DNA of 31,516 nucleotides from a virus (Duplodnaviria; Caudoviricetes), in the IMG/VR virus record IMGVR_UViG_3300007276_000178, positions 1 through 31,516 of that record. The stretch is one strand, 5' to 3'. Positions 2,667 to 27,468 of this stretch are shown here, one piece after another. Position numbers and translations under genes: made by a program. How positions within the stretch are numbered: position 1 is the stretch's first letter; every line of letters begins with the position of its first letter. Below the pieces are notes generated by a model, which was given only the letters and a program-made list of their open reading frames with translations, had not been told where the DNA came from and did no database searches.

Positions 2667-3020
2667 ATGTTTATAAGAAATATAGGATTACTACTCTTAG
2701 CTATAGTTGCCTCTCTTCTTCTCATCCCACTATCCATTATAAGAAACCTTGTATATAAGATAACAGACTTTGAAGAGTTTAATTTCTATATATTTGCTAT
2801 AGCACATGGAATAGATGTAATGGGGGCATCTGTCTTATTCTCCACTACATATAAAACTGTTAGTGGAGTTACAGGTAAGAAAGCAATAGAGGAAAGAGCT
2901 AAAGGATTAGAGCGTTCATATATCTATCCATTTGAAAAGTTTATTGATTGGTTATTTAATGATCCTAAACATTGTTATAAGGCTTATATTAAAGAGTATA
3001 AGTGTAAGGAGGAAGTATGA
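2667..3020 (+). CDS. Conserved phage membrane protein
   Basis: N-terminal TM; ID..G....TVSG..GK...FIDWLF.DP.HC motif often seen after fibre genes. Confidence 0.55.
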   Translation: MFIRNIGLLLLAIVASLLLIPLSIIRNLVYKITDFEEFNFYIFAIAHGIDVMGASVLFSTTYKTVSGVTGKKAIEERAKGLERSYIYPFEKFIDWLFNDPKHCYKAYIKEYKCKEEV

Positions 3021-3547
3021 GTTTACTAGCACTAGGGTTACTCAAATTTGTACCAGATGTAATTGATTTGTTCTCTAGTAAGAATAAGAAGAAAGAAACT
3101 ATTGAATTAGTCTCTAATATAGCCAAAGAGGTTACAGGGGAGAGTTCAGTAGATAATGCAGAACGTATCTTATCTAATAACCCTGAACTGGCTTATGAAT
3201 TTAAGATGGCAGTAATGGAGAATGAGACTATCCTAGAACGGATGGATGAGGAAAGCAGGGAGAGAGCTAGTAGTCAGTATAAGGTGCATAATGTTCAGGC
3301 AGATAAGATAGCAGAATCTATCATGTCTAAGAATCTAGTTATTATCTTCGTATTGGTGCTTATCAACGTAGGTGCTGTATTTACTACTTCCTATTTTAAA
3401 CTAGATGATCCGGCTACTATTGCTATTATATCTAATCTAATAGGTGTAGTCATAGGACAATTGTTAGCAGAGAGACAAACAGTAGTGTCATTCTTCTTCG
3501 GCTCATCATTAGGCAGTAAGATTAAAAGTATGATAACACCCAAGTAG
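3017..3547 (+). CDS. Holin (GTA-type 3TM holin-like)
   Basis: N-terminal amphipathic region, NPELA.EFK, two C-terminal TMs ending FFFGSSLGSK. Confidence 0.65.
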   Translation: MSLLALGLLKFVPDVIDLFSSKNKKKETIELVSNIAKEVTGESSVDNAERILSNNPELAYEFKMAVMENETILERMDEESRERASSQYKVHNVQADKIAESIMSKNLVIIFVLVLINVGAVFTTSYFKLDDPATIAIISNLIGVVIGQLLAERQTVVSFFFGSSLGSKIKSMITPK

Positions 3548-3656
3548 AAGCTCCATACAGCCCCTCTAAGGGCTTACTAATCTACCCCTAGCTACCCTAC
3601 CTAGAAACAGAGAAACGCCCTTAGAATGGAATCTAGAGCCTTCTAGGGGTATGTTT
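3545..3656 (+). repeat. Dispersed ~110-bp symmetric element, copy A
   Basis: Arms TAGAAG..TCTAAGGGC / GCCCTTAGA..CTTCTA around CTACCCTAC (3592-3600); ungapped alignment to copies B and C. Confidence 0.9.
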
Positions 3657-3682
3657 AAAGAGTATTAATACAAGGAACTCTA

Positions 3683-4057
3683 ATGATAGAAGGAATACTG
3701 AAACAAGTTCCTAACCTAGTAAGTAGTGTCGGATTATCCAATACACTTATGTTGATATTCAGTGGAATATTAGTATATTACTGTGCATATCTAGTAAGAG
3801 CTAATACTAAGAGTATCCAAACTAATGAAGAAAACTTACAAAGAAAATTAAAGTTAGTAGAGGATGACCAAAGAGCTTGCCATGTGGAAAGGGAAGCTTA
3901 TAGAAAGGAATTAACTACTACTAAGTTAAGGAACGATGAACTTAATCTCCTTAATAGGGAAGCCCAAAGGCAATTAAAAGAATCTGAGGTAGCTAGGCAA
4001 ACTACTATGGATACTTTCACTAGGACTGTAGAACAGTTTATGGCTAATAATGAATAA
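3683..4057 (+). CDS. Single-TM coiled-coil protein (paralog of 5040..5447)
   Basis: TM at about aa 20-38, then heptad-rich helix; shares R.ELN.LN...Q...K...VA..T with 5040..5447. Confidence 0.75.
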   Translation: MIEGILKQVPNLVSSVGLSNTLMLIFSGILVYYCAYLVRANTKSIQTNEENLQRKLKLVEDDQRACHVEREAYRKELTTTKLRNDELNLLNREAQRQLKESEVARQTTMDTFTRTVEQFMANNE

Positions 4058-4373
4058 TGTATTATTTATAGAAGATTCAGAAGCACATCGAACTTTAATT
4101 GAATGCTATTTAGAGGCTAGGAACGATTGTATTTATCACACTACAGAAGAAGTAGATGAATCTTTAATAGAAGCCGCTGATATTATCTTTATAGATTATC
4201 ATCTAGGTAACTTAATAGGGACTAATATAGCTAAAGATATTCAGAGAAGGTATCCCGAAAAACATATCTACATATATACAAGTAGAAATGGGATAAGGTC
4301 TGATTTCCCTGTCATACCTAAAGGTGATTTTAGAGGGTTCATGTCTGTATTAGATGAGTATATAAACACTTGA
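4050..4373 (+). CDS. Stand-alone CheY-like response-regulator receiver domain
   Basis: VLFIED (E8/D9), DIIFIDYHL (D49), G57, YT77S, K91; no output domain. Confidence 0.85.
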   Translation: MNNVLFIEDSEAHRTLIECYLEARNDCIYHTTEEVDESLIEAADIIFIDYHLGNLIGTNIAKDIQRRYPEKHIYIYTSRNGIRSDFPVIPKGDFRGFMSVLDEYINT

Positions 4374-4398
4374 CTTTATACTTCATGTATGATAAGGT
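4370..4398 (+). promoter_or_regulatory. Putative sigma70 promoter
   Basis: TTGACT-17 bp-TAAGGT with TG extended -10. Confidence 0.55.
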
Positions 4399-4441
4399 AT
4401 AGAATCAAATTAATTAATAACTAACAAGAGAGAGTAAGTAT

Positions 4442-4501
4442 ATGTCAGCACCAAGTACAGCACCACGTAATAGCGCAGATAAGCCAAAAGTGAGGAAGTA
4501 A
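4442..4501 (+). CDS. Putative 19-aa peptide MSAPSTAPRNSADKPKVRK
   Basis: AAGAGAGAG purine tract ~7 nt upstream, directly after promoter; ends with TAA TAG TAA, the last overlapping the ATG at 4507. Confidence 0.55.
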   Translation: MSAPSTAPRNSADKPKVRK

Positions 4502-4506
4502 TAGTA

Positions 4507-5067
4507 ATGTTTACTACTCTCTGGATTATTCTTATATGTATATGTTTATACTATGCAATAACACACCCTCTTAAACAAGGTGCTGGTATTAGTTTGTTGT
4601 TTGTATTGGCAGCAGTTGTACCTTATGTGTTAGGTAAGCTGGTATATAATCTACCTATGCCTCAGATACACCTATTCAACTCTATGGCTGCATTTACAGT
4701 GATAGCTATTATAGCATGGTTAGAGGATTCTACTCTAAGAGATAATATAGTTTACTTATCTATTGCGGAAGTAGGGTTGAATATAATAGGATCAGAGAGT
4801 TGGTATAAGTATCACTACATACATCTTAGTAATTATATATTTGATAATACAGGAGTGTCCTTAGTCACTGTACTAGGAGAAAATTGGATATACAATACAC
4901 TACTTATCTTATTCTACTTAGTAGCTATATACATCCTATACGATAAAGAAGATAGGGAACAGTATGTCGGAAATGGAGTATTACAGTTTGTTGGTGATAC
5001 AGTTCTTAGTCCTAATATTCGCTTTAAGGATATGGAAGAATGCCAAGAGAAACAGAAGAACTCATAA
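4507..5067 (+). CDS. Polytopic membrane protein (~5 TM)
   Basis: Multiple hydrophobic segments; GAGGAAG RBS. Confidence 0.8.
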   Translation: MFTTLWIILICICLYYAITHPLKQGAGISLLFVLAAVVPYVLGKLVYNLPMPQIHLFNSMAAFTVIAIIAWLEDSTLRDNIVYLSIAEVGLNIIGSESWYKYHYIHLSNYIFDNTGVSLVTVLGENWIYNTLLILFYLVAIYILYDKEDREQYVGNGVLQFVGDTVLSPNIRFKDMEECQEKQKNS

Positions 5068-5447
5068 GAGAAGTAAGTCTAGCAGCAGGAGGAGTGATAG
5101 GAGGTAGTACAACACTACTCACACTTACGTTAGCATTTGCTGCTTTATTCGCAATAGCAGGTATGTTTCTAATGTGGAAGCAGAACTGTAAGAGTAATAC
5201 ACAGATAAAGAAAGAATTAGATAAGAATAAAGAAGGAAGGGAGGCTTGTGAAGCTAGAGAAAGGCGGTCTAATATAGTGTTAGCTGAGATTAGAAGTTCT
5301 CTAGAGAAGTGCGAGAAGAGAGGAGAAGAGCTTAATCAGCTTAACAAGAAATCCCAACAGAAGATAAAAGATGCTATAGTAGCGCAAGAAACTATGTCTA
5401 AGATGTTACAAGATACATTTAGTAAAGTTATGGATAAGATGAACTGA
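5040..5447 (+). CDS. TM coiled-coil protein (paralog of 3683..4057)
   Basis: Hydrophobic aa ~13-45, then charged coiled coil. Confidence 0.75.
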   Translation: MPRETEELIREVSLAAGGVIGGSTTLLTLTLAFAALFAIAGMFLMWKQNCKSNTQIKKELDKNKEGREACEARERRSNIVLAEIRSSLEKCEKRGEELNQLNKKSQQKIKDAIVAQETMSKMLQDTFSKVMDKMN

Positions 5448-5482
5448 TAAGAATAATATACAATACAATTACTAATTAAACT

Positions 5483-5534
5483 AATCCCCTAACACTATGT
5501 CCCCCTCTGCGTAGTTAAGTTAGGGGATTTTTTT
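5483..5534 (+). terminator. Intrinsic terminator
   Basis: AATCCCCTAAC...GTTAGGGGATT stem followed by T-run. Confidence 0.8.
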
Positions 5535-5559: not shown

Positions 5560-5844
5560 ATGGCACAGACATTACCAGATATTATTATAGGGCAAACTTG
5601 GATAGATATTAATACAGTGAGCGGTATTGCTGTAGGAACACCTATGTTGATTACTAACAAGGGAAGTGGAGAATTGCTAGTACTAGAACAGACAGCTACA
5701 CCAGTTGACTCTGATACACTAGGAGTACCCATAACTAATACAGATAACCCTTATGCTACAGCCAATACATTAGTAGGTAGTTTAAAGATATGGTGCAAGG
5801 CTAGAGATACATTAGGGACTACTATTAACGTACAAGAAGTGTAG
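5560..5844 (+). CDS. Hypothetical protein (possibly virion, beta-rich)
   Basis: ORF with Thr/Val-rich composition. Confidence 0.6.
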   Translation: MAQTLPDIIIGQTWIDINTVSGIAVGTPMLITNKGSGELLVLEQTATPVDSDTLGVPITNTDNPYATANTLVGSLKIWCKARDTLGTTINVQEV

Positions 5845-5853
5845 GAGATTATT

Positions 5854-6363
5854 ATGACTATAATAATAGGTGAAAGAGGAAGTGGTAAATTAAGTGGTAA
5901 TACATCTGGGTGGGCTAGTTATGTCGATACAGTTCATGTTGATTTAGGGACATCGTTTACAGTGTCGGCAGATACAGATACTATCCTGCCTAATAATGCG
6001 GGTACTATTATTGATAGTCAAAAACCCTCAGATATTGCAACGTTTTATGATGGTTCTGTAATTACAGGTAGGAATGGAGATGCTTTAGATATGATGCTTT
6101 ATTTTAAAGCAGTACCTTCGGCAGCAAACCAATGGCTTGAGGTATGGGTAGATATAGGTGGGGCGGTTGGAGAGTTATATAAGCAAACTTTTGTATTCCC
6201 TAAAGGTGCGAGTGTTGAGCGAGGTATAGTTTATGGCTTACCTAGTGCTTATACATTAGGTACATGGGAAGCAAATGGTGCAACAGTTTATGTACGATCA
6301 AATGCTATAGTAGATATTTATAAGATAAATTATAACTTCGATAGGACACATAAAGCTATATAA
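5854..6363 (+). CDS. Hypothetical protein (possibly virion, beta-sandwich)
   Basis: AGGAG RBS; beta-rich; last + strand gene before the convergent junction. Confidence 0.65.
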   Translation: MTIIIGERGSGKLSGNTSGWASYVDTVHVDLGTSFTVSADTDTILPNNAGTIIDSQKPSDIATFYDGSVITGRNGDALDMMLYFKAVPSAANQWLEVWVDIGGAVGELYKQTFVFPKGASVERGIVYGLPSAYTLGTWEANGATVYVRSNAIVDIYKINYNFDRTHKAI

Positions 6364-7652: not shown

Positions 7653-7764
7653 TATACACTCCTGTAAGCCTCTGTACGGCTCTCTGATATTACCCCTACC
7701 TACCCTACCTATTCAAGCTAAAAAGCTCTTAGAATGGAATGTAGGGCGTTCTAGGAGCATGTTT
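7653..7764 (+). repeat. Dispersed ~110-bp symmetric element, copy B
   Basis: CTCCTGTAAGCCTCTGTACGG...CTACCCTAC (7700-7708)...CTTAGAATGGAAT...TTCTAGG...ATGTTT. Confidence 0.9.
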
Positions 7765-7963
7765 ATACTGCTATTACGCAGTCTTCCTCTGCAACACTTA
7801 ATTCTCCAATAACCTTTGCACAGTCTAGGCAGAAAAGAATACTCTGCCCCCTATTTAGGGAAGTGTATGTATAGATTATTTTATCTCCTTTATATAAACT
7901 TCTATTACACCCCCTACAACCTCCATTTCTTTGTATAGACCTTCTTTCAATTTCATTATACAT
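7763..7963 (-). CDS. Small zinc-binding protein
   Basis: CRGC ... CLDC. Confidence 0.65.
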   Translation of the reverse strand: MYNEIERRSIQRNGGCRGCNRSLYKGDKIIYTYTSLNRGQSILFCLDCAKVIGELSVAEEDCVIAV

Positions 7964-27356: not shown

Positions 27357-27468
27357 AAACACCCCTGAGAACGCCATATAAGCCTCACCGCAGCACGTTT
27401 AGGTAGTACCCTGTAGGGTAGTATACCCCTAGACTACTTGCCCGTACAGAGGCTTACAGGAGCTTCTA
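27357..27468 (-). repeat. Dispersed ~110-bp symmetric element, copy D (inverted)
   Basis: Minus strand TAGAAGCTCCTGTAAGCCTCTGTACGG...CTACCCTAC...GAGGCTTA..GGCGTTCTCAGGGGTGTTT. Confidence 0.88.

Follow-up and report, generated by a model that had tools for sequence, protein, structure and literature searches.

Lysis inhibition in phage T4 involves the holin T and the antiholins RI and RIII, with superinfection as the cue. Arbitrium communication relies on AimP, AimR and AimX, and in the AgrB/AgrD pair AgrB carries catalytic His and Cys residues and the peptide a thiolactone Cys. In phage ICP1, TeaA has been shown to act as holin; its antiholin is ArrA, a polytopic protein, and gp139 is a third transmembrane (TM) protein (PMC7182436). 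Here, a group of small genes located next to a holin gene was analysed in a 31.5-kb partial phage genome (IMG/VR record IMGVR_UViG_3300007276_000178, Caudoviricetes; the whole stretch of 31,516 nucleotides is called the window). These genes constitute a real and widespread module, for which no description was found in the full-text literature (most subscription journals and supplements being outside the coverage), and which contains one gene more than first listed in a preliminary description of the window.

In the 5′ to 3′ direction the window shows tail genes, a holin-like gene, the coiled-coil gene A, a receiver gene, a 19-codon open reading frame (ORF), a membrane gene, the coiled-coil gene B, and a hairpin followed by a U-tract (Table 1). 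The ORFs of the preliminary description were real as drawn (124 aa for A, 107 aa for the receiver, 186 aa for the membrane protein and 135 aa for B, besides the 19-codon ORF), but an eighth gene had been overlooked, and the single seven-gene cassette proposed there was found to consist of two separable units, the receiver with A on one side and a core on the other. The DNA polymerase encoded in the window shares about 47% identity with its counterparts in Pseudomonas, Klebsiella and Escherichia phages. The comparison covered five uncultured lineages (the window; L002–L004; L011; L012–L013; L029–L030), with membrane protein identity down to 37%, and 13 cultured-phage loci, picked for diversity from 77 and 94 redundant records. 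In the tests on the peptide and the hidden gene 18 loci were counted, with near-duplicate pairs among those for the hidden gene.

Table 1. Features of the window in and around the module (positions of the window; strand "." where neither applies).
Feature	Position	Strand	Observation
Holin, homologue of ICP1 TeaA, module neighbour	3017..3547	+	27.6% over 174 aa, E 3e-15; phrog_1544 for both
Dispersed intergenic repeat 3′ of holin, not module-specific	3545..3660	.	79% copy at 7691-7765
TM/coiled-coil protein A, paralogue of B, accessory with receiver	3683..4057	+	one TM, 22-40
Stand-alone receiver domain, accessory	4050..4373	+	PF00072 E 4.9e-6; phosphorylation-site residues intact
Predicted sigma-70-type promoter	4370..4398	+	TTGACT-17-TAAGGT, extended -10 (TG); kept in relatives with different upstream gene
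Basic peptide, 19 residues, without signal peptide	4442..4501	+	consensus M-x-x-P-x4-(R)-x-x-[AS]-D-K-P-x-[VI]-[RK]-K
Five-helix inner-membrane protein, remote homologue of phrog_15451	4507..5067	+	tail overlaps hidden gene; model, BFVD, hhalign
Hidden gene, 47-residue single-TM protein, basic tail, predicted N-out/C-in	4964..5107	+	+1 frame of five-helix gene tail
TM/coiled-coil protein B, last core gene	5040..5447	+	one TM, 26-44; at this place in 4/5 lineages
Predicted intrinsic terminator, hairpin and U-tract	5483..5534	+	-24.1 kcal/mol, z -7.0, 0/200 shuffles

The window resembles the ICP1 lysis-inhibition locus (TeaA gp137, ArrA gp138, gp139) in that a holin, a membrane protein with several TM helices and a coiled-coil protein with one TM occur together, with a sigma-70-type promoter; ArrA and gp139, however, are not detectably related to the window proteins, and the gene order differs. 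Neither a peptide gene nor a hidden TM frame was seen in the ICP1 locus, and ArrA belongs to a different PHROG family (phrog_14386), to which no match from the five-helix family was obtained. The likeness to T4 would be the membrane-based control of holin triggering, if the function proposed for the module holds, although with a co-encoded peptide instead of superinfection as cue; no match of the module proteins to the Pfam or PHROG families of T, RI and RIII was found. Arbitrium shares with the window a small peptide gene adjoining a candidate receptor gene in a phage, but the window peptide has no signal peptide, the candidate receptor is a membrane protein and the hosts are Gram-negative; among the scanned neighbours no family of a cytoplasmic TPR receptor or of aimX was present. 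The AgrB features were also lacking, with no Pfam match, no invariant His or Cys in the membrane protein family and no Cys in the peptide. For the lysis systems of CSP1, BSPM4, N4, phiKZ, Siskin and phiCbK, the module layout was not seen in the accessible parts of their descriptions.

A profile search gave 15 proteins, from whose alignment a structure model was built (predicted local distance difference test score, pLDDT, 84.8; the five helices near 90; a low-confidence tail after residue 150). The earlier estimate of about five TM segments agreed with the five helices of this model, whereas hydropathy alone showed four peaks. A tblastn search of cultured phages found no match for the membrane protein or for the receiver; the link to cultured phages came through the structure model. 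Its matches in BFVD were several uncharacterised phage proteins of 139–171 residues, including, among the top matches, ORF50 of Edwardsiella phage PEi21 (phrog_15451; E 0.013, probability 1.0), which was the one followed up; a structural match to phage phiCbK was also obtained. Profile comparison (hhalign) with the phrog_15451 family gave probabilities of 96.4% and 96.9% (E 1.7e-10 for the latter), and the direct match to the PHROG hidden Markov model of phrog_15451 was E 0.082 for the window protein and 7e-5 for the relative P0019. Carriers of the five-helix family were found among cultured phages of Edwardsiella, Klebsiella, Vibrio, Aeromonas and Erwinia, and they include the Escherichia phages ZCEC13 and CWW26 (77 and 94 records, redundant and with many duplicates). 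In PEi21 and its relatives the unnamed families phrog_15451, phrog_13707 and phrog_36947, all annotated as "unknown function", occur in the same gene order as in the window, that is, peptide, membrane, hidden and TM/coil gene; the window clade differs from this clade by a longer loop before helix 5, a different peptide motif and the optional receiver.

Other searches with the five-helix protein showed no Pfam match and no PDB match (Foldseek, E ≤ 0.001); the best VIA-align hits of the model were generic helical bundles (Z 9.1), and the ESM Atlas returned leads only, at 0.88 (unnamed) and 0.86 ("MreD"). P0019, P0023 and a protein of Vibrio phage 367.14, used as queries, retrieved no loci from the metagenome, viral and genome collections, a result not read as absence from prophages, and the last viral scan gave already known contigs only.

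The peptide of all five uncultured lineages has a length of 19 residues and a C-terminal DKP-x-[VI]-[RK]-K motif, and its ORF stops 2–5 nt upstream of the membrane gene. Compared with L003/L004, the window peptide gene shows 4–5 synonymous and four changed codons. A short basic peptide gene was found −4 to +19 nt from the membrane gene in 16 of the 18 loci; under a stricter rule the peptide gene passed in 13/18 targets and in 0/116 other genes (118 control rows, two of them targets). The tie between this ORF and the membrane gene proposed earlier was supported by these data, although its presence is not constant, phage CP-T1 being devoid of it. Among the cultured loci, 11 of the 13 carry a short basic ORF upstream of the membrane gene by rule, the encoded peptides being characterised by Lys, Arg, Gly and Pro and often by a GG-x-G-K/R unit, of which PEi21 has three copies and two Aeromonas phages have two each. 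No hydrophobic stretch was detected in any of 16 peptides; the highest 9-residue hydropathy was 0.8, a value also used as search filter, and that of the window peptide was −0.5. In PhiPLPE (L021, about 1840–1955) the peptide ORF appears by eye to be split over two frames near an A run, with a GGQGK unit in each part, either through a sequencing slip or in reality.

The overlooked eighth gene begins right after the codons for helix 5, and its predicted product consists of a single hydrophobic helix with a charged, mostly basic tail behind it; the gene also overlaps the start of B. At window positions 5040–5067 the three forward frames are all coding (membrane protein tail, hidden gene and B start). 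The hidden ORF was present in 18/18 loci and additionally in L029, while the same rule fired on 4/162 other genes, two of them annotated embedded spanin genes (9/167 control rows fired, five being targets; the control takes in window relatives). The fraction of T at third positions of the host frame was 0.46–0.61 in the overlap versus 0.15–0.38 in the gene body, in GC-rich phages too. Synonymous changes were commoner in the +1 than in the host frame in 8/8 pairwise comparisons. In the cultured clade the synonymous/changed counts were 11/9 (+1) versus 1/18 (host) and 9/11 (+1) versus 1/17 (host); in the window clade the +1 frame led by a narrow margin only, with signs of constraint in both frames. 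By mean substitution score, three pairs gave no preference for the +1 frame.

The hidden ORF possesses start codons with purine-rich upstream sequence in most loci, and is without annotation in the records examined. Fusion of the hidden helix to the five-helix protein by frameshifting is less likely, in view of these starts and of the basic tail, which would end up outside. No conserved cysteine was found in the hidden ORF, and its only holin-family match was a weak one (E 0.008, PHROG scan only). Embedded Rz/Rz1 spanins and the Mu releasin gp25 (PMC9239132) offer similar features, a membrane gene that harbours another gene in its +1 frame and an N-out/C-in single-pass protein near lysis genes; the hidden protein, however, is not a lipoprotein, and its tail is basic whereas that of releasin is acidic. 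The hidden gene bears on annotation and on the interpretation of deletions of the membrane-gene tail.

The paralogy of A and B claimed in the preliminary description was upheld by BLASTP (E 6e-7); their alignment score of 91 was matched by 0/5000 segment shuffles and 5/5000 heptad-block shuffles, and P0009 and P0010 bridge the two proteins. B follows the membrane gene in four of the five lineages, with a GTG start in L013. For B no DUF2730 match was found, and the ESM Atlas gave a lead only (0.82, BhlA holin). B also showed weak matches to Rz-like PHROG families (E 0.0024–0.04), and the window yielded no further spanin, as would be expected if A and B were ordinary inner-membrane spanins and the rest of the locus incidental. 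This is highly improbable, in that these matches cover the TM and coil only, the ORF list contains no lipoprotein ORF embedded in or adjacent to A or B, and the hidden ORF has no cysteine. Furthermore, basic residues follow the TM of A and B, a charge that would place the coil in the cytoplasm, opposite to the N-in/C-out topology of spanins. Spanin pairs of their own also occur in the cultured carriers, whose last gene, however, has no demonstrated homology to B.

The receiver domain matched Pfam PF00072 with 27 bits, under the curated cut-off of 30.2, and the NtrC1 receiver with E 0.0013; its sequence keeps the acidic pair, Asp49, Thr77 and Lys92, and comparison with L004 showed 30 synonymous and 27 changed codons. 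It is found behind a TM/coiled-coil gene in three of the five lineages, adjacent to the membrane unit in the window and L011 and at a distance of two genes in L004; in L011 it was assigned by motif only, without Pfam match at E ≤ 0.01. From L013 and L029/L030 it is missing, in the latter two from this place only, because the contigs are short, and none of the 13 cultured-phage loci showed a receiver within 2 kb, by annotation or on inspection. Because of the distribution over the five lineages, the stable core consists of the peptide, the membrane protein and B, together with the hidden gene, and the receiver with A is an optional add-on.

This distribution also bears on the idea of one seven-gene cassette, in which the receiver would couple the host phosphorelay to the peptide receptor through coiled-coil adaptors. 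Intact receiver residues, the position of the receiver always directly 3′ of a TM/coiled-coil gene, its running directly into the peptide gene in L011 and the paralogy of A and B would agree with such a cassette; it is nevertheless very unlikely, given the two intervening genes in L004, the lineages and cultured loci in which the receiver is missing from this place, and the lack of an evident kinase in the window, as judged from the ORF list of a partial genome. The receiver is probably phosphorylated by a host kinase or by an unseen phage kinase.

The proposed location beside lysis genes was supported by the homology of the neighbouring holin to TeaA (no PF11351 match at E ≤ 1) and by an endolysin within 2 kb in 9/13 cultured loci (annotation or Pfam). 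In all five uncultured lineages the module follows a holin-like gene where visible. No endolysin was found in the window by tblastn with three endolysin types, the contig being a partial genome. All 13 cultured loci end with a small TM/coil gene, which was phrog_13707 in the nine scanned and gave weak holin-family matches in 4/9 (E 0.0008–0.007).

Four reading frames in fixed order and with fixed overlaps are conserved and spread over phages of several Gram-negative hosts, with a frequent link to lysis genes. From the sequences and the model, we tentatively propose that the four-gene core may well form an inner-membrane complex that sets the moment at which the holin triggers; the predicted ligand of its five-helix protein is the peptide. 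Coupled translation would provide the three membrane proteins in fixed proportions, the Lys/Arg-rich peptide would bind the five-helix protein, and the state of the five-helix protein would be relayed to the holin by the hidden helix and by the coiled coil, for each of which an N-out, C-in orientation is predicted; alternatively, the coiled-coil protein might itself form a pore in the manner of a holin. The receiver, together with A, would act as an optional second input.

Several results weigh against this proposal. No homology was detectable between the five-helix protein and ArrA (hmmsearch 3.8 bits, hhalign 0.2–0.3%), between B and the last gene of the cultured clade (6.5%), or between the hidden protein and its positional counterpart there (4.7%), and the peptides of the two clades are alike in composition while their sequences do not align. 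L011 is without coiled-coil B, and in CP-T1 no peptide gene precedes the membrane gene, although the hidden and last genes are in place. No lysis gene lies within 2 kb in 4/13 cultured loci (PhiPLPE, CKB-S1, phiA005 and VP_EVC_2013), and unrelated accessory genes are commonly found where the late region ends.

Part of this evidence would fit a multi-part holin/antiholin operon without signalling, in which the last gene would supply the holin, while the five-helix and hidden proteins would serve as fixed antiholins or as assembly factors; the small ORF would be a cis leader that only couples or tunes translation. The weak holin-family matches of the last gene, and once of the hidden gene, point in this direction, as do the absence of any further holin candidate annotated next to the endolysin in PEi21 or BUCT791, the peptide, which lacks an export signal and whose ORF stops beside the start codon in nearly all cases, and CP-T1, which manages without it. 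However, the peptide residues are conserved with synonymous changes, the two to three repeated units in several phages would be superfluous for pure coupling, a separate holin exists in AeroV_348 (phrog_1356, E 6.5e-11), and the window has a TeaA-type holin besides the module; such an operon is possible but somewhat unlikely. In AeroV_348 the module stands alongside a complete endolysin-holin-spanin set. This, the sigma-70-type promoter and terminator of its own and the four cultured loci away from lysis genes are consistent with a self-contained envelope function unrelated to lysis timing, for instance in superinfection exclusion or in counter-defence, which would be parked where the late region ends. 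We regard this as decidedly unlikely in view of the nine cultured loci by an endolysin, the holin-like gene preceding the module in the uncultured lineages and the holin-like last gene.

Concerning the regulatory elements, the internal promoter proposed in the preliminary description was found conserved where the upstream gene differs, although it was not called by the consensus promoter scan; with a loose pattern, a promoter-like element was present in 5/6 loci. The terminator, also not called by scan, was supported by the folding energy of its hairpin. The repeat proposed as the other boundary of the block is dispersed and intergenic and marks no module border: a partial inverted copy lies at 27440–27468, and in L013 and L029 the repeat is also found 5′ of the peptide gene. 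The repeat has internal symmetry and occurs in relatives too. RNA-library contigs of three runs span the module and carry neither strand nor level information; two of the RNA-library contigs end at 5348 and 5402, before the hairpin, and were not counted as evidence. In run X1, one such contig showed a divergent allele of the post-terminator genes (window 5583–5965), with the module itself unchanged.

Among the neighbouring genes, the holin allele is strongly divergent between lineages (window 3017–3547; L011 1566–2084; L013 5169–5708; L030 630–1124) with constant neighbours, the window, L011 and L013 alleles all being phrog_1544. Directly upstream of the holin, a two-TM protein of phrog_3342 (window 2667–3020) is encoded in the window, L004, L011, L013 and L030; it occupies the position of ArrA in ICP1, is a second antiholin candidate, and showed no BLASTP match to ICP1 gp135–139. 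The pair phrog_4770 and phrog_8270 (window 5560–6363) is located 3′ of the module in the window and between receiver and peptide gene in L004, and by eye a similar-looking gene pair lies 5′ of the module in Vibrio phage 1.009.O.

A further step would be peptide communication in lytic phages of Gram-negative bacteria, with lysis inhibition cued by a phage-made peptide and not by superinfecting virions, which we consider unlikely. Burst cells would release the peptide, or its five-helix partner would export it, and the five-helix receptor of neighbouring infected cells would sense it and restrain the holin via the hidden overlapping membrane protein. Since it has no signal sequence, the peptide could get to a neighbouring cell only when lysis occurs or via the five-helix protein. 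The timing of lysis determines how much phage is produced, and there are very few phages in which the cue for lysis inhibition is understood. With cultured, mutable carriers at hand, peptide timing of lysis in lytic phages of Gram-negative hosts becomes directly testable.
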